The notes beneath the pieces were generated by a model. The model did not search any database. It worked only from the letters and a program-made list of their open reading frames with translations, and was not told the origin of the DNA. This document shows positions 19,156 to 50,300 of a stretch of DNA of 61,315 bases, piece by piece (the first letter of the stretch is position 1; the number at the start of each line of letters is the position of its first letter). Location of the stretch: the NCBI GenBank assembly GCA_038232515.1, contig JBBSHS010000002.1, forward strand, positions 1 to 61,315. Reading direction: 5' to 3'. This DNA is from Acidimicrobiales bacterium. GTDB lineage: Bacteria > Actinomycetota > Acidimicrobiia > Acidimicrobiales > JAUJNH01. The position numbers and the translations under genes are program-made.

Positions 19156-19180
19156 GCGCCGGCCGCCCGGCGGCCGGCGC
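19156..19180 (+). terminator. GC hairpin after moeA (11-bp perfect stem GCGCCGGCCGC/GCGGCCGGCGC, loop CCG)
   Basis: Begins 9 nt after the stop. No U-tract (actinobacterial I-shaped type). Confidence 0.45.
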
Positions 19181-19252
19181 GAGATTGGGTGGCCACGTGG
19201 CCTTCCCGGGCCATCCGGGCCGCTGAAGGCCACCGCCCGACCCAATCTCGCG
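19178..19252. repeat. repeat family 3, copy 3A (nested imperfect palindrome)
   Basis: CGCGAGATTGGGT-N6-GTGGCCTTC-N19-GAAGGCCAC-N6-ACCCAATCTCGCG. Confidence 0.85.
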
Positions 19253-22817: not shown

Positions 22818-23645
22818 ATGTGGCCCACATCGACCCGGCGGGTCGTAGCCGACGACGGCACGCCCATCGCCGCACGCGTGACGGGGGATGGCGACGCGGT
22901 GGTGCTCGTCCACAGCGCGGCATCGGACGCCCGGCAATGGGCCAGGCTGATGCCGCTGCTGGCCCCGAGCTTCAACGTCGTGGCCATGGACCGCCGGGGG
23001 CGTGGAGCGAGTGGGCCTCAGCGCCCCGGTCACTCGCTCGCGGTCGACTACGGAGACGTTGCCGCCGTCGGCTCGTCGATCTCCGGGCCCGTGCACCTGG
23101 TCGGCCACTCCTCGGGGGCCCGCTACGCCCTCCACGCCGCGCTGCGCATCCCCGGCTTGACGAGCCTGGTGCTGTACGAGCCTCCCGCCCCGGAGGGGTT
23201 TTGCGATGCCTCGCTCGACCGTATGTCCGTCCAGGAGTCGGCCGGGGACCGGGAAGGGGTTCTCCGGACCTTTTTCGTCGATCTGGTCGGGGTTGAGGAC
23301 GAGGAGTTCTCCATGCTCGGGGAGCGACCGATCTGGCCACTCATGGTCGACAACGCCCTGACCGTGCCGGCCGAGCTCCGGGCCGCCCGTAGCTACCGGT
23401 TCGACCCGGCGGCGTTCGCCGGGCTGGCCGTGCCCACCCTGCTCCTGGTGGGTGAGCTCAGCGGTCCGGAACTGCGCACGGTGGCCGGACGAATCGCCGA
23501 CGCTCTGCCCGACGCCCGTGTCGTCACCCTTGCCGGTCAAGGGCACGGAGCCATGTTCAGCGCCCCTGACCTCCTCGCATCGGTGCTCCAGGGCTTCTTC
23601 GAGGAGGTCGGGCACGGACCGCCGGACCGGTCAGACGGGCCCTGA
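22818..23645 (+). CDS. alpha/beta hydrolase
   Basis: VVLVHSAASDARQW, nucleophile elbow GHSSGA, C-terminal GHGAM. Confidence 0.85.
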   Translation: MWPTSTRRVVADDGTPIAARVTGDGDAVVLVHSAASDARQWARLMPLLAPSFNVVAMDRRGRGASGPQRPGHSLAVDYGDVAAVGSSISGPVHLVGHSSGARYALHAALRIPGLTSLVLYEPPAPEGFCDASLDRMSVQESAGDREGVLRTFFVDLVGVEDEEFSMLGERPIWPLMVDNALTVPAELRAARSYRFDPAAFAGLAVPTLLLVGELSGPELRTVAGRIADALPDARVVTLAGQGHGAMFSAPDLLASVLQGFFEEVGHGPPDRSDGP

Positions 23646-23682: not shown

Positions 23683-24021
23683 CTATCCGCCGGCGGTTGG
23701 TGGCTCCCAGCCCAACAGCTCGAGGTGGCAGCGGGCCAGCCGCTCGTAGGCCTGGAGCAGATCGTCCCTGGCTGCGTCGAGGGCTCCGGGCGGGGCCGGC
23801 TCCGGCTTCCACCGGCCCCGCAGTGGCTCGGTGGCCACCAGTGACTCCAGAGCGTGCGAGGCATTTCGCAGACCCTGATGGGCGCGGTGCAGCTCTTCTC
23901 GTTCCTCGGCCGACAGGTCTTCAGGCCGGCGCCCTTGGTCGGTCACTTCTTCTCGCTTTTCCTCGTCAAAGGCCGATTTGCGGCGTTCGGCCGCCTGGGA
24001 AGAAACATCGAACGGGGGCAC
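23683..24021 (-). CDS. hypothetical small charged protein
   Basis: 112 aa, helical and charged. GTG start. Once the family-1 insertion is removed it lies 19 nt after the ilvA stop. Confidence 0.45.
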   Translation of the reverse strand: MPPFDVSSQAAERRKSAFDEEKREEVTDQGRRPEDLSAEEREELHRAHQGLRNASHALESLVATEPLRGRWKPEPAPPGALDAARDDLLQAYERLARCHLELLGWEPPTAGG

Positions 24022-24033
24022 GGAACGATAGTG

Positions 24034-24278
24034 CCGGGGCTTCGCCCCCGCCCGACGAGGCGGTCAGGTCATCCTTCGGCCTACCAGCGGCGATGTTCTT
24101 CACCCGCACCGTACGGGGGCATCCTGCGTTCGTGGGCTGGCCGTCATCCTCGAACCCGACCCGGCCCTCCCACACCGCTACGCCATCAGTTTCGACAAAC
24201 TCGAAGCGGGCATCACTGACCTTGTCGGCGCGGCGCGGAACTTGGCTCAATCGTGTCGGTTCCTAGGCAAGCGCCTAG
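24034..24278 (+). repeat. repeat family 1, copy A
   Basis: Aligns with 28026-28258 and 50051-50300. 5' hairpin GGGGC-TTC-GCCCC at 24036-24048. 3' hairpin CTAGGC-aagc-GCCTAG at 24263-24278. Flanked by TAGTGCCGG at 24029-24037 and 24276-24284. Confidence 0.9.
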
Positions 24279-24287
24279 TGCCGGCTT

Positions 24288-25496
24288 TCACTCCTGGCCC
24301 GACCGCAGGAGCTCGACCTGGTAGCCGGCGCCCCGCAGGGCGTCGACCACCTGGTGGCGATGCCCGGGATTGCGGGTCTCCAGGGTCAACATCACCTCGA
24401 CGTCCCGCAGGGCGATGTTGACGCCCGCCCGATGGTGTTCGACCTCCAGGACGTTGAGGCCCATGCTGCCCACCAGGGCCAGCAGGCCAGCCAGGGAGCC
24501 CGGCTCGTCGGCCACGACGAGGCGAAGGAGGAGGTATCGGCCGGCGGCTGACAGGCCGTGGTCGATGAGCTTGATGAGCAGGAGTGGATCGACGTTGCCA
24601 CCGGAAAGAATGACGACCACCGGTCCGGTGCCCGGGACTTTGTCGGCCAGCACAGCGGCGAGGCCCACGGCCCCCGCCGGCTCCACGACGGCCTTGGCCC
24701 GTTCCAACAGCAGGAGCAGCGACCGACTGATCTCCTCCTCGTGGACGGTCACGAGATCGTCGACGTATGCCTGCACGTGGGACAGGGTCAGGTCGCAGAC
24801 CTGTTTGACGGCGATGCCGTCGGCCATGGTCGCCATCTGCTCGATACTGGTCGGCCGGCCGGCGTTGACAGAGGCCTGCATGGACGCCGCTCCGGCCGCC
24901 TCGACGCCGATCACGCGCACGTCGCGCCGGGTGTGGGCCAGGGCGGTGGCAACCCCCCCTATGAGGCCGCCGCCCCCGACGGGCACCACGACGGCGTCGA
25001 CGTCCGGTGCCTCCTCGGCGATCTCCAAACCGACCGTGCCCTGCCCAGCCATGACCAAGGGGTCGTCGAATGGCGGCACGAACACGGCGCCGGTGTCGGC
25101 CGCGTAGGCCTGGGCCAGAGCCAGGGCGTCGTCCACCACGAGGCCGGCCAGCCGTACCTCGGCGCCGTACCCGCGGGTGGCGTCAACCTTGGGCAGGGCC
25201 GCCGTGACGGGCATGAACACCACCGAGGCGTGGCCCGTGCGGCTGGCCGCGAAGGCCACTCCCTGGGCATGGTTGCCGGCGGAGGCGGTGACCACCACGA
25301 CCCCATCGGGCAGCCGGCTGATGCAGTTGTACGCCCCTCTGACCTTGAACGAGCCCGTGCGCTGCAGGTGCTCAGGCTTGAGCAGCACGTCACGGCCGGC
25401 CAGCCGGGACAGGGCCTCCGCCCGGTAGACCGGGGTGGGTCGTACGACGCCCCTGACCCGGTCACGGGCATCCTGGATGTCCGACAGGCCGATCAC
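24288..25496 (-). CDS. ilvA: threonine ammonia-lyase (threonine dehydratase), single ACT-like domain form
   Basis: [18 protein letters not shown] (PLP Lys), GGGGLIGG, C-terminal ACT-like region. GTG 25496 is the only start codon near the conserved N-terminus. Confidence 0.92.
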
Positions 25497-27955: not shown

Positions 27956-28025
27956 TGGCGAGCCGTCGTCCACTACGGGGCGGGTGGTGCGGATGGCAGC
28001 GCCCATGCCTGGCGCCAAGCTCCTA

Positions 28026-28258
28026 ACGGGGCTTCGCCCCCGCCCGACGAGCACGTCATCCCAGGGGCTACGAGCGGCGATGTTCTTCACCCGCACCATG
28101 AGCACAGTCGCCCTGCGTTCGTCGGGGCCGTCACCCTCGAACCCGACCCGCCCCTCCCGAAACGCTGGTTCGACAAACTTGGAGCGGCCTCACCGGCCTT
28201 GCCGACGCCGCATGGAACTTCAGTCAATCGTATCGGCTCCTAGGAGCCAAGCTCCTAG
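28026..28258 (+). repeat. repeat family 1, copy B
   Basis: 5' hairpin at 28028-28040. 3' hairpin CTAGGAGC-caa-GCTCCTAG at 28240-28258. Flanked by GCCAAGCTCCTA at 28014-28025 and 28246-28257. Confidence 0.9.
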
Positions 28259-28261
28259 CCT
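28256..28261 (+). promoter_or_regulatory. -10-like box TAGCCT, 8 nt before the glmS ATG (leaderless candidate)
   Basis: TANNNT hexamer, no Shine-Dalgarno sequence. Overlaps the right-hand direct repeat of family-1 copy B. Confidence 0.4.
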
Positions 28262-28269
28262 GACCACCC

Positions 28270-30123
28270 ATGTGCGGCATCATCGGCGCCACCGGCTCTG
28301 ACCCAGTTCTCCCCCTCCTGCTCCAGGGGTTGGCCCGCCTCGAGTACCGGGGTTACGACTCCGCCGGCGTGGCCCTGGTCGACGGCGACCGCATCTGGCG
28401 GTGCCGACGGGCCGGCGGCACCAAGTCGGTGGCCGAGCTGTCCGAAGCGGTGGGTGACGCTCCTGTAGGCCTGGTCACGGGCATCGGCCACTCCCGATGG
28501 GCCACCCATGGTGCCCCCACCGAGGTCAACGCCCATCCCCACCTCGACGGCACCGGGCGGTTGGCGCTGGTCCACAACGGCATCATCGAGAACTACCGGG
28601 AGCTGGCCCGCAGCCTCCCCCAGGGCGGGGACGAGCTGGTGAGTGACACCGACACCGAGGTCCTGGCCCACCTCATCTCGTCCCGGGTGGGCAGCGGGCT
28701 CGGGTTGGCCGACGCCGTGCGGGCGTGCCTGCGCCAGGTCGAGGGCAAGTTCGCCATCGCCGTGGTCCACGCCGACGAGCCCGGTCTGGTCGTCGGCGCC
28801 CGGCGGGGGTCACCGCTCATCTGCGGCCGGTCCGACGGCACCGCCTACCTGGCCTCTGACATTCCCGCCATCCATGGCCGGGCCAAGGAGTTCTACGTCA
28901 TCCTCAACGACCAAGTGGTCGAGCTCGGCGCCGGCATCATCCGCATCACCGACCTGGCCGGCCACGAGGTCGAGCCGGTGGCCCGGGAGGTCACCTGGGA
29001 CCTCGAGGCGGCCGAGAAGGGCGGCTACCCCGACTTCATGCTGAAGGAGATCCACGAGCAACCGGCGGCCGTCCGCGACACCCTGCTGGACCGCATCGTC
29101 GGCGGTCGGCTGGCCCTGGACCAGGTACGCCTGTCCGACGACGACCTGCGCCAGGTCGACAAGGTGTTCATCGTGGCCTGCGGATCGAGCTTCCACGCCG
29201 GCATGGTCGGCCGCCTGGCCATCGGCCACTTCGCCTCGCTGCCCGTCGAGGTCGAGATCGCCAGCGAGTTCCGCTACCGCGACCCGGTGCTCGACGGCAC
29301 CAGCCTGGTCATCGCCGTCAGCCAGTCGGGCGAGACGCTGGACACCATGGAAGCAGTGGCCCACGCCAAGGCCATGAGCAAGGCCAGGGTGCTGGCCGTG
29401 TCCAACGTGGTCGACTCCTCACTGGCCCGCGACGCCGACGCCGTGCTCTACACCCGGGCCGGTCCCGAGATCGGTGTGGCATCCACCAAGTGCCATCTCG
29501 CCCAGCTGGTGGCCATGCAGGTCATCGCCCTCTACCTGGCCCAGGTGCGGGGCAAGCTCTACCCCGAGGAGGTCGAGCACCAGCTCGAGCACCTGCAGCG
29601 TCTGCCGTTGCGCATAGAGGCGGCCATCGCCCGGCGGGCCGAGGTGGAGGCCGTGGCCGAGGCCGTGTCCGGTGGGCGCGACTTCTTCTTCATCGGCCGC
29701 AACGCCGGCTACCCGGTGGCCCTGGAGGGAGCGCTGAAGCTCAAGGAGATAAGCTACCTGCGGGCCGAGGGCTACCCGGCGGGCGAGCTGAAGCATGGCC
29801 CCATAGCCCTGGTCGAGCCGGGCACCGTGGTGGTGGCGGTGGCCACCCGCAGCCACCTGAGGGACAAGATCATCTCCAACATCGCCGAGGTGAAGGCCCG
29901 GGGAGCCACGGTCGTCGCCCTGGTCGACGAGCGCGACGCCGGCGATGCCAACGTGGTCGGTCTGGTCGACCACGTACTGGCTGTGCCCTGGGCCGGCCAC
30001 GTCCTGTTCCAGCCGGTGGTCGACGTGGTCCCCCTCCAGCTGTTCGCCTACGCCCTGGCCAAGGCCCGTGGCAACGACGTCGACAAACCCCGCAACCTGG
30101 CCAAGGTCGTCACCGTGGAATAG
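28270..30123 (+). CDS. glmS: glutamine--fructose-6-phosphate aminotransferase (isomerizing)
   Basis: MCGIIG N-terminal nucleophile, two SIS domains, C-terminal ...NLAKVVTVE. Confidence 0.97.
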   Translation: MCGIIGATGSDPVLPLLLQGLARLEYRGYDSAGVALVDGDRIWRCRRAGGTKSVAELSEAVGDAPVGLVTGIGHSRWATHGAPTEVNAHPHLDGTGRLALVHNGIIENYRELARSLPQGGDELVSDTDTEVLAHLISSRVGSGLGLADAVRACLRQVEGKFAIAVVHADEPGLVVGARRGSPLICGRSDGTAYLASDIPAIHGRAKEFYVILNDQVVELGAGIIRITDLAGHEVEPVAREVTWDLEAAEKGGYPDFMLKEIHEQPAAVRDTLLDRIVGGRLALDQVRLSDDDLRQVDKVFIVACGSSFHAGMVGRLAIGHFASLPVEVEIASEFRYRDPVLDGTSLVIAVSQSGETLDTMEAVAHAKAMSKARVLAVSNVVDSSLARDADAVLYTRAGPEIGVASTKCHLAQLVAMQVIALYLAQVRGKLYPEEVEHQLEHLQRLPLRIEAAIARRAEVEAVAEAVSGGRDFFFIGRNAGYPVALEGALKLKEISYLRAEGYPAGELKHGPIALVEPGTVVVAVATRSHLRDKIISNIAEVKARGATVVALVDERDAGDANVVGLVDHVLAVPWAGHVLFQPVVDVVPLQLFAYALAKARGNDVDKPRNLAKVVTVE

Positions 30124-43071: not shown

Positions 43072-43076
43072 CCGCC

Positions 43077-43147
43077 CGAGATTGGTTCCAGCCGTGGCCT
43101 TCGCGGCCGAAAATCGACGCTGAAGGCCACCAGGCGACCCAATCTCG
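43077..43147. repeat. repeat family 3, copy 3B
   Basis: CGAGATTGGTT-N6-GTGGCCTTC-N19-GAAGGCCAC-N6-ACCCAATCTCG. Starts 6 nt after the guaA stop. Confidence 0.85.
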
Positions 43148-43201
43148 AGATGTCGAGACCGTTGGGCCGGCGCATCCGGCGAGGGCGACCGGGGTGGCCG
43201 G

Positions 43202-45459: not shown

Positions 45460-45921
45460 TCAGGCCGGTCTTGGCGTGGCCGGTTTCTCCCTGGTGCTGA
45501 AGGCGACCTGCCAGGACGTGTCGGTGGCGCCGTCGATGCTGAACGCCCACGCGTAGCGGTGCCCCGGCTCCAAGGGCAGCGGGCCGAAGTTGACCACCAG
45601 AGGAATGTCGAGCGGCGTGCCGGGGGCCAGGTCCTCGGGCCGAAAGGCCTGGAAGTCGCCGCTGACGATGAGGGCCTCGTTGCCGTTCTGGGTGGGCAGG
45701 AACACGTGGCCACCGTCCTCGTCGACCAGTTCGAGGGTCCAGTGGAAGGGGCGGTCGGCGTCGGTCCACGGGACATCGACCTTGACGGCGATGGCCATGG
45801 GGGACGGGTCGGGCCCGACGAACGACCAACCGCCGCCGAGGATGTACAGCTTGCCGTCGGCCACCTGGGCCGAGTCGCACAACAGCATGGTGACCTTGGG
45901 TGCGGCGGGATCGTCAGCCAT
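45460..45921 (-). CDS. conserved hypothetical protein
   Basis: 153 aa, clean coding signal (LLCDSAQVADGKLYILGGGW...). TAGGGT box (minus strand, 45930-45935) ends 8 nt before the ATG. Confidence 0.65.
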   Translation of the reverse strand: MADDPAAPKVTMLLCDSAQVADGKLYILGGGWSFVGPDPSPMAIAVKVDVPWTDADRPFHWTLELVDEDGGHVFLPTQNGNEALIVSGDFQAFRPEDLAPGTPLDIPLVVNFGPLPLEPGHRYAWAFSIDGATDTSWQVAFSTREKPATPRPA

Positions 45922-45935
45922 CGTCGGGCACCCTA

Positions 45936-46001
45936 CCGGGGCTTCGCCCCCGCCGGACGAGCAGGTCAGTGTTAGGGCCTACGAGTGGCCCTTCGTGGCC
46001 T
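45936..46001 (+). repeat. repeat family 1, short/degenerate copy D
   Basis: CCGGGGCTTCGCCCCCGCCGGACGAGCAGGTCAG matches the 5' end of family 1. Similarity then decays, and the copy ends in GGCCTAG. Confidence 0.5.
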
Positions 46002-48924: not shown

Positions 48925-48999
48925 CGCGAGATTGGGTCCCAGCGTGGCCTTCACCGCCGATTTTGACCGGTGAAGGCCACCACACCACCCAATCTCGCG
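48925..48999. repeat. repeat family 3, copy 3C (central loop inverted relative to 3B)
   Basis: CGCGAGATTGGGT-N6-GTGGCCTTC-N20-GAAGGCCAC-N6-ACCCAATCTCGCG. Starts 11 nt after the sucD stop. Confidence 0.85.
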
Positions 49000-50050: not shown

Positions 50051-50300
50051 CCGGGGCTTCGCCCCGCCCGACGAGCGGTCAGGTCATCCTTCGGCCTACT
50101 AGCGGCGATGTTCTTCACCGCACCCTGCGGGGCATCCCGCGTTCGTGGGATGGCCGCCATCCTCGAACCCGACGCAGCCGTCCACGCCGGCTACGCGGTC
50201 AGTTCGACAAGCTCGAAGCGGCCATCACTCACCATGTCGGCGCGGCGCGGAACTTGACTCCATCGTGTCAGCTTCTAGGCGCCCAAGCGCCTTGGGCGCC
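50051..50300 (+). repeat. repeat family 1, copy C
   Basis: 5' hairpin at 50053-50065. 3' hairpin GGCGCCCAAG-cgc-CTTGGGCGCC at 50278-50300. Starts 8 nt after the amidase stop. Confidence 0.9.

Follow-up and report, generated by a model that had tools for sequence, protein, structure and literature searches.

Several described groups of mobile DNA each resemble, in part, a family of repeats found in a 61,315-nucleotide (nt) stretch of an organism placed in the Acidimicrobiales (GenBank contig JBBSHS010000002.1, positions 1 to 61,315 of the forward strand; hereafter the window), where one copy sits directly upstream of glmS. The IS630/Tc1-mariner insertion sequences (IS) and their MITEs (miniature inverted-repeat transposable elements) are alike in their CTAG (TA) target, in a 2-nt TA duplication, and in short non-autonomous derivatives located in promoters and gene ends. 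However, IS630/Tc1-mariner elements have terminal inverted repeats and a DDE transposase known to Pfam and NCBIfam, whereas here the ends are asymmetric, no such match is found, and duplications of 5-17 nt occasionally occur. IS200/IS605 elements and their palindrome-associated transposable elements (PATEs) also show asymmetric ends, a terminal or sub-terminal hairpin, insertion 3' of a short sequence that also ends the element, and non-autonomous hairpin-bearing derivatives, but the present family has neither a Y1 HUH TnpA nor a TnpB match, and its constrained G 3' of the insertion and its real duplications are not expected of single-strand peel-and-paste transposition. IS91, ISCR and Helitron elements share asymmetric ends, a short specific target, and one weakly defined end that leads to carry-over of adjacent DNA, which is what a glmS-derived module on two of the window copies (A and C) looks like; in contrast, no HUH Y2 transposase domains are found here, and these three groups make no target duplication. 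The Rep_trans (PF02486) rolling-circle initiators and MOBT relaxases provide the best N-terminal structural match (4cij) and likewise have a hairpin at the presumed nick end, although sequence-level signal is lacking here and Rep_trans proteins have been reported from plasmids, filamentous phages, conjugative transposons, and archaeal viruses, that is, outside insertion sequences (PMC13107129). Finally, IS110/IS1111 elements likewise lack inverted repeats, make a short duplication or none, and have a long structured stretch of non-coding sequence 5' of the recombinase gene, but no DEDD or Transposase_20 domains are found in the present family.

Judged by sequence, the target and duplication of this family are therefore IS630-like and its end architecture is IS200/IS605-, IS91- or IS110-like, while the defining protein test of each group fails. 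The four window copies (A-D) are not orphans: their termini mark them as non-autonomous derivatives of a large family that is best described as a probably new IS family with such derivatives. Taken as a whole, the explanation that we consider probable comprises descent of the copies from this family, insertion at CTAG, duplications produced by two separate joints, and a particular history of copy B at the glmS promoter. A literature search on the terminal sequence, on CTAG-targeting actinobacterial IS, and on Rep_trans- or TATA-box-binding protein (TBP)-fold transposases found no description of the family.

The full element is approximately 1.75-1.85 kb long and consists of CTA|(A/G/C)C-GGGGCTTCGCCCC(A)GCCCGACGAG (the vertical bar marking the junction), a structured leader, a single open reading frame (ORF) of ~537 amino acids (aa), AAACTTGACTCA, and a right end terminating in ...CTA|G. 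When a single genome of each species was scanned for GGGGCTTCGCCCC(N)GCCSGACGA, the left terminus, at least 114 loci were recovered, mainly from many Actinomycetota; hosts among the matches listed are Mycobacterium, Pseudonocardia, Frankia, Nonomuraea, Kribbella, Egibacteraceae, Kineosporiaceae, Acidimicrobiia, and others, together with a few non-actinobacterial bins, and many of these matches lie within a few bases of a contig end. At most loci a single ORF of ~535-540 aa follows the motif and starts with MT(V/L)(A/P)RSV.DVL..HV.FE.ECIDRMY; after the ORF come AAACTTGACTCA, usually a small hairpin, and then C(A/T)AG-N4-CTA and G. At one locus (L100) a pair of full copies stands head to tail at a spacing of 1,845 bp. 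Several genomes also have short forms (100-270 nt), and both termini are common to the full-length and short forms. In full elements the left terminus is separated from the start codon by a conserved structured leader of ~110 nt (L100:4750-4862, and likewise at 27 other loci); its outer helix (GGCTCCGGTCGG...CCGACCGGAGCC) encloses three inner hairpins and contains the Shine-Dalgarno sequence, compensatory changes are present at 11 of 29 predicted pairs, and the ribosome-binding site is predicted to be sequestered by this helix. Four full elements scanned against Rfam gave no match for the leader, which the window copies do not carry.

The product of the ~537-aa ORF is a putative transposase, assigned by elimination because it is the only ORF of a multi-copy mobile unit. 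No match was obtained in Pfam, NCBIfam (its IS-family models included), PHROGs or, by sequence and profile searches, the PDB, even at E = 10; diverse members yielded only weak winged-helix matches near residues 430-490, and isolated N-domains had no Pfam match. In a database clustered at 90%, all 8,000 of 8,000 scored candidates passed, and those with a source name were hypothetical proteins; at the 50% identity level there were 13,356 representatives (E <= 0.001), and tblastn returned "hypothetical protein" entries on Rhodococcus, Mycobacterium, Mycolicibacterium, and Burkholderia-group plasmids. Invariant positions in a diverse alignment were D23, R24, E114, Y146, D151, G155, F158, P166, N174, Q250, E252, K328, R338, and D348. 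AlphaFold prediction from a shallow alignment (73-90% identity) reached a pLDDT of 52, and a fold search with it showed a winged helix only; with the diverse alignment the pLDDT was 83.8 and the pTM 0.70. This model shows a C-terminal winged helix and a beta-rich N-terminal region, putatively catalytic, which may adopt a nickase fold resembling that of Rep_trans proteins, whose fold is TBP-like. Foldseek found no match at E <= 0.001 in the PDB, its best being 4cij, a rolling-circle initiator of the Rep_trans type (E 0.01, probability 0.85, TM-score 0.33), with winged helices of the MarR type next; in a viral library it returned several unnamed proteins and TATA-box-binding protein. Alignment of the family profile with pT181 RepC by hhalign, for which the template was a single sequence so that a negative outcome carries little weight, was not significant (probability 0.1), with a short suggestive stretch of NGNE...GF.pLDNGF against NPNK...GFTRLDLAFD. 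The modelled resemblance to Rep_trans is accordingly weak and is a lead, not a finding. It is possible, though in our estimation unlikely, that the protein represents a new class of transposase in which a TBP-like Rep_trans-type nickase joined to a winged helix nicks 3' of CTA at the terminal hairpin and at CTAG targets. If true, this would be the first IS family driven by a Rep_trans-type nickase, the use of two nick sites would account for the variable length of the duplications as well as for flanking DNA being carried along, and the conserved 110-nt leader may join in the reaction beyond its presumed part in translation control.

Three full copies and one partial copy are present in the 61 kb of the window, all on the plus strand, with the full copies 232-244 nt in size. 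Copy A (24034-24277; ends CC-GGGGCTTCGCCCC... and ...TTCCTAGGCAAGCGCCTA) lies just past the 3' end of ilvA, whose stop codon (TGA, reading tca on the plus strand) is at 24288-24290, 10 nt beyond the last base of the copy. Copy B (28026-28257, with homology to copy A over 28027-28258) lies upstream of glmS; its left end is AC-GGGGCTTCGCCCCCGCCCGACGAG and its original right end ...AATCGTATCGGCTCCTA extends up to 28242, where a duplicated segment, probably host-derived (28243-28257), begins. Copy C occupies 50051-50293 (left junction GCTA|CCGGGGC, right end ...CTTCTAGGCGCCCAAGCGCCTT|G), with a terminal hairpin that reaches into 50294-50300, while copy D is recognisable only by its left ~55 nt (45936-45990). 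Copies A, B, and C align over ~240 nt, continuing through the last CTAG, and D is common to them only over its first ~55 nt. Copy B is the most diverged, being 76% identical to A, and indels among A, B, and C are not multiples of three, leaving no intact ORF. The left 24 nt are identical to the family terminus, and on the right the motif GGAACTTGACTC/ATCGT...CTAG corresponds to AAACTTGACTCA...CTAG in full elements. No homologue of the ~537-aa ORF is present in the window; the copy interior has only weak tblastn similarity to the putative transposase gene (E about 0.01), of which it could conceivably be a remnant. Because both termini are shared with protein-coding elements and the window holds no homologue of the ORF, we read copies A-D as non-autonomous derivatives, which are MITE-like in a loose sense only given their asymmetric ends: apart from CTA, the left end ACGGGGCTTCGCCCC has nothing in common with the reverse-complemented right end, and terminal inverted repeats are absent. 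A left-terminal hairpin (GGGGC-TTC-GCCCC) is family-invariant, with all five pairs unchanged across 28 diverse elements, and is located at 24036-24048, 28028-28040, and 45938-45950; in copy C (50053-50064) its distal arm is one C shorter (GGGGC-TTC-GCCC, then C).

Alternatively, the copies could be a family of structured RNA genes or regulatory leaders and not mobile DNA, with the flanking repeats incidental. The plus strands of A and B do fold somewhat better than shuffled sequences (z = -2.0 and -2.2) and the copies are intergenic, beside gene starts or ends. However, apart from one tRNA the window has no Rfam match at gathering or permissive thresholds, relatives lack elements at the same loci, and the termini are common to 1.8-kb protein-coding elements that are multi-copy and assembly-breaking, and we consider an RNA origin very improbable.

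The sequence-only reading of this DNA, made before any comparison with other genomes, had placed all left junctions just after a TA, and CCTA|AC (B), GCTA|CC (C), CCTA|CC (D), and GATA|GTGCC (A) are indeed what the sequence reads. At copy D, the reverse complement gives TAGGGT-GCCCGACG-ATG, such that the junction is on the complement of a TAGGGT box ending 8 nt before the minus-strand ATG at 45921, as had been described. The proposed preference for (C)TAG proved very strong over 110 family insertions: the trinucleotide that precedes the element has C first in 100 of the 110 distinct left flanks, T second in 97, and A third in 106. The next two bases, mostly AC, differ by subfamily and are the element's own. 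Approximately 30 complete copies share 3 nt, sometimes 4-5, between left flank and right terminus, followed by G in nearly all. A filled site in L119 (GTACTA[element...CTA]GTCGC) can be compared with an unfilled paralogous site on another plasmid, in L120 (GTACTAGTCGC). The target of the family is thus CTAG, with TA or CTA left at each end of the insertion; TA and CTA duplications are not distinguishable from each other. CTAG itself is depleted in the window (19 sites vs 64 expected from shuffles), with 7 of the 19 inside the four copies. An A at position -9 is enriched in left flanks (77/110), in part supplied by a recurrent flank, GGCTG(T/G/C)AGTACTA. Copies of one element in one genome (L025 vs L070; six Micromonosporaceae copies) have unrelated flanks beyond CTA, and the target is therefore not set by a programmable RNA as in IS110/IS1111; guide-RNA-programmed targeting was ruled out on this basis.

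Further observations concern these junctions. One subfamily lies repeatedly directly after (CTAC)GGCTG(T/G/C)AGTACTA (L119:1300-1342 vs L120:480-515; also L004, L031, L061, L084, L091, L098, and L110), and in Rhodococcus the GGCTG(T/G/C)AGTACTA portion is the end of another element, IS701-like by eye from C-terminal transposase sequence alone; the family therefore frequently inserts into the CTAG that lies at such an end. A subgroup (L016, L036, L071, L072, L080, and L112) has a left junction of CCA|GC or GCA|GC rather than CTA|AC, and the right end of L112 is CCA rather than CTA, which hints that the cleaved target trinucleotide must match the element's own terminus. In L092, L062, L119:3185-3203, and L004, right termini and some left flanks contain tandem 8-nt units ending in CTAG (e.g. 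CTAGCCATCTAGCCATCTAG and CTAGCTACCTAGCTACCTAG), which resemble the traces that successive rounds of insertion and excision, or joining at two sites, would leave at the terminal CTAG.

Longer direct repeats at copies A and B had been read from the sequence as target-site duplications. The 12-mer GCCAAGCTCCTA occurs in the window only at 28014-28025 and 28246-28257 (0.01 expected, and at least two matches in 0/100 shuffles), and the 9-mer TAGTGCCGG only at 24029-24037 and 24276-24284 (window-wide expectation 0.36, at least two matches in 7/100 shuffles). As a position-aware control, the longest common substring was determined between 40-nt left-junction and 100-nt right-end windows of paired unrelated copies; it was at least 9 nt in ~0.7% of pairs and 12 nt in none of ~2,960. 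Both repeats are present as described and exceed chance, but the canonical signature of the family is just TA or CTA, and long repeats are rare, being found in 3 of ~40 complete copies (A, B, and L112). Copy C, as previously stated, has no flanking direct repeat beyond the core (longest common substring of 5). The repeats had been called copy-specific, but this does not simply hold, as the duplicated segment of B is homologous to the right ends of A and C.

At copy B the duplication is most likely real but longer than the 12 nt given at first, extending to 15 nt with one mismatch, GG(C/A)GCCAAGCTCCTA, or to 17 nt if counted from TA to TA. The presumed host (target) copy, GGCGCCAAGCTCCTA (28011-28025, plus strand), has the left 12-mer as its final 12 nt and terminates in the CTA of the target CTAG. 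The second copy, GGAGCCAAGCTCCTA (28243-28257, plus strand), makes the 3' hairpin with the CCTAGG end of the element. The left copy differs by one substitution and one missing A, decay that fits with B being the most diverged copy. On this reading each junction of B fits the canonical form, the left one being CTCCTA|AC and the right one GGCTCCTA|GG, and the joints lie 15 nt apart.

That this was a true insertion, as had been suspected, is borne out by three relatives without an element upstream of glmS. In L116 (GlmS identity 80%) the glmM TGA is followed by 23 nt and the glmS ATG; L115 (93%) has ...gaccggCCTAGCCTGgcctcATG and L121, the closest relative (94.7%), has ...gacgctgcgaaCTCCTAGCCTGgcccccATG before glmS, the empty site in L121 reading gcgaaCTCCTAGCCTGg...ATG. 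Neither the 9-mer nor the 12-mer is present in any relative examined. Removing the element and one repeat, as had been proposed, gives a reconstructed empty site that aligns to L121 with a score of 53 vs 38 for the alternative; in this alignment CTCCTAGCCTG is uninterrupted and GC-GCCAAG faces GCTGCGAA. The left copy of the segment aligns with gcgaa-CTCCTAGCCTG of the L121 empty site, and ungapped, L121 matches 7/12 bases upstream of CTA vs ~3.6 by chance. Because the closest relative aligns with the reconstructed site, the left repeat is most likely host DNA, and B would then have a true target duplication of 15-17 nt. The interpretation of TAGCCT as the -10 box of a leaderless glmS also gained support: TAGCCT or TAGGCT is found 6-8 nt before the glmS ATG in the window and four relatives (L115, L116, L117, and L121), which supports its role as a putative -10 box, and in the window it is regenerated at the right junction (28256-28261, plus strand; ATG at 28270). 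Scans with consensus promoter and terminator models around copies A and B gave no match. The region between glmM and glmS in the window (27956-28025) comprises just 70 nt plus copy B, and in the two closest relatives (L121:2727-3756 and L115:1-225) an opposite-strand 306-aa gene with a signal-peptide-like start is located between glmM and glmS.

The same repeat could have arisen if the left 12-15-mer of B were the leftover right terminus of an older copy, into whose regenerated CTAG a second copy entered, giving a tandem like that in L100 of which the first copy was lost save for its last 15-19 nt, e.g. by cleavage at the inner CTAG. Head-to-tail tandem copies do exist in L100, the CTAG target is recreated at every right junction, and the left flank of B resembles its right end (CCT-GGcGCCAAGCTCCTA vs CCTAGGaGCCAAGCTCCTA; 19 positions, including a single gap and a single mismatch); moreover, the module is common to copies A and C, and the family right-end consensus resembles CAAG-CTC-CTAG. 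Against this, the L121 empty site already contains the aligned sequence and its ungapped matches exceed expectation, the alternative reconstruction aligns worse, and no further remnant of an older copy is present upstream of B. We consider such a remnant unlikely on balance, and a host origin of the left repeat is preferred.

Copy A is less straightforward. Removal of the element does leave the 19-nt spacer that had been reported (24022-24037 plus 24285-24287), but the 9-nt repeat is only partly a duplication. The left 9-mer (24029-24037, plus strand) comprises the flank TAGTG (24029-24033) and the first four bases of the element, CCGG (24034-24037), which match the start CCGGGGC of copies C and D; homology to copies C and B begins at 24034/24035. 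In the right 9-mer (24276-24284, plus strand), TA is part of the terminal CTA|G junction and GTGCCGG is flank. The boundaries of copy A, with CCGGGGC on the left and ...GCGCC before TA on the right, match the family, and only TAGTG (5 nt) appears assignable to duplication. In L112, from another genome, a 19-nt repeat includes a duplicated core, CA...CA, of 16 nt, situated between a non-canonical right end (CCA, not CTA) and a CCA|GC left junction. YA stands at the start of all three long duplications and also at the end of two, as would be expected if each joint needs (C)YA and joints occasionally use neighbouring sites in place of the two strands of a single palindrome.

These repeats might instead be stretches shared by the junction of a circular donor, in which right end meets left end, and a target that resembles it, as in conservative site-specific recombination of the attP/attB type, in which case repeat length would track the likeness of the target to the junction. 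The asymmetric ends without inverted repeats and the head-to-tail junction in L100 are compatible with this, as are the resemblance of the copy A target (TAG-TG-CCGG) to a junction TAG|CCGG and the overlap of the L112 repeat with 2-3 nt of each element end. However, ordinary copies share just CTA with their targets, same-element copies in one genome have unrelated flanks, the protein has no tyrosine, serine or DEDD recombinase signature, and the identity at copy B is on one side only. Recombination of this type consequently seems improbable to us, and duplication between two joints remains our preferred account.

Near copy A, a stretch of 26 nt in the coding extension of ilvA (24281-24306) resembles the element left end (CCGG..CTT.C.C.CC.G.CCCGAC), which could be due to chance or be a trace of an older insertion. 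The window ilvA is four codons longer (SGQE) than that of L121, whose TAG stop sits within CTAG. A 112-aa ORF (MPPFDVSSQAAERRKSAFDEEKREE...; 23683-24021, minus strand) lies between copy A and the upstream gene (ending at 23645), and L116 has no counterpart of it, a pseudouridine synthase gene overlapping ilvA there.

The 3' hairpins that the sequence-only reading had drawn between the CTAGG-containing element end and the duplicated flank of copies A and B fold as described, and copy C also ends in a hairpin. The arms are CTAGGC/GCCTAG in A, (C)TAGGAGC/GCTCCTA(G) in B, and GGCGCCCAAG/CTTGGGCGCC in C, with DNA folding energies of -5.9, -7.9, and -14.9 kcal/mol, respectively; the host copy of the 12-mer alone does not fold (-0.6 kcal/mol). 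In B (C to A), in A (a deletion together with T to G), and in C (a terminus extended into the flank), the change specific to the copy improves pairing, which suggests selection for a terminal hairpin. The terminus of copy C (GGCGCCCAAGCGCCTT) and that of copy A (GG-CAAGCGCCTA) are homologous to the host segment of B, and we find it reasonably likely that A and C descend from the glmS copy and carry the segment as their right ends (3' transduction).

Under the explanation that we favour, the element's protein would cut both strands of the palindrome CTAG, in each case 3' of (C)TA, giving a 2-nt stagger, and the two joints would occasionally form at two nearby YA sites, leading to duplication of the interval between them (TA...TA of 15-17 nt in copy B, CA...CA of 16 nt in L112, and TAGTG of 5 nt in copy A). 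Copy B would have landed in the CTAG of the glmS -10 box, the original empty site of which would hold GCCAAGCTCC, reading GCCAAGCTCCTAGCC, and the duplication would have regenerated TAGCCT and ~15 nt of upstream promoter context beside an essential gene. A later mobilisation from the glmS locus may have taken the outer CTA as right boundary, carrying along the 15-nt host segment; this GGCGCCAAGC module would now form the right terminus of A and C, reshaped into a hairpin in each.

Several points weigh against this explanation. The host origin of the left repeat of B depends on one relative and ~16 alignable intergenic bases, and L115, about equally distant, differs immediately upstream of CCTAG. 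The upstream joint of B requires an ancestral CCTAGG where the window now has CCT-GG. Given that family right ends are already C(A/T)AG-N4-CTAG, CAAG-CTC-CTAG could be ordinary right-end sequence and not captured host DNA. At copy A, the CCGG identity of element start and flank (chance of ~1/60 to 1/250) is unexplained by simple duplication, and an empty site is lacking: L121 diverges right after the ilvA stop, with no element within the available 124 nt and a flank that is not alignable. Scans of public metagenomes for the window's own subfamily found no other copies that could bear on the order of events among A, B, and C; a single match in the second scan, inside a membrane-protein gene, was rejected as chance. 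The cutting chemistry, moreover, is wholly inferred; the hhalign probability and Foldseek TM-score given above are just 0.1 and 0.33.

More than 13,000 protein clusters (50% identity) of this family are now labelled hypothetical and are invisible to Pfam, NCBI naming models, and Rfam, in hosts that range over mycobacteria, Rhodococcus, Frankia, Pseudonocardia, Acidimicrobiia, and Burkholderia plasmids. Recognition of the family would correct annotation, and would explain many assembly breaks in actinobacterial genomes and some of the CTAG sites in these CTAG-poor genomes. CTAG occurs within -10 boxes (TAGNNT) and TAG stops, and insertions therefore hit leaderless-gene promoters and gene ends; the glmS case would illustrate a duplication able to rebuild the promoter of an essential gene. 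Should the enzyme be a new nickase type, it would add to the known chemistries of transposition and might yield a compact tool for sequence-specific insertion of DNA.

Another repeat family, unrelated to the first and ~75 nt long, is also present in the window in three copies (19178-19252, 43075-43149, and 48925-48999; 73-79% identical to the reference), in which a GTGGCCTTC...GAAGGCCAC palindrome lies between long terminal inverted repeats (CGCGAGATTGGGT...ACCCAATCTCGCG).

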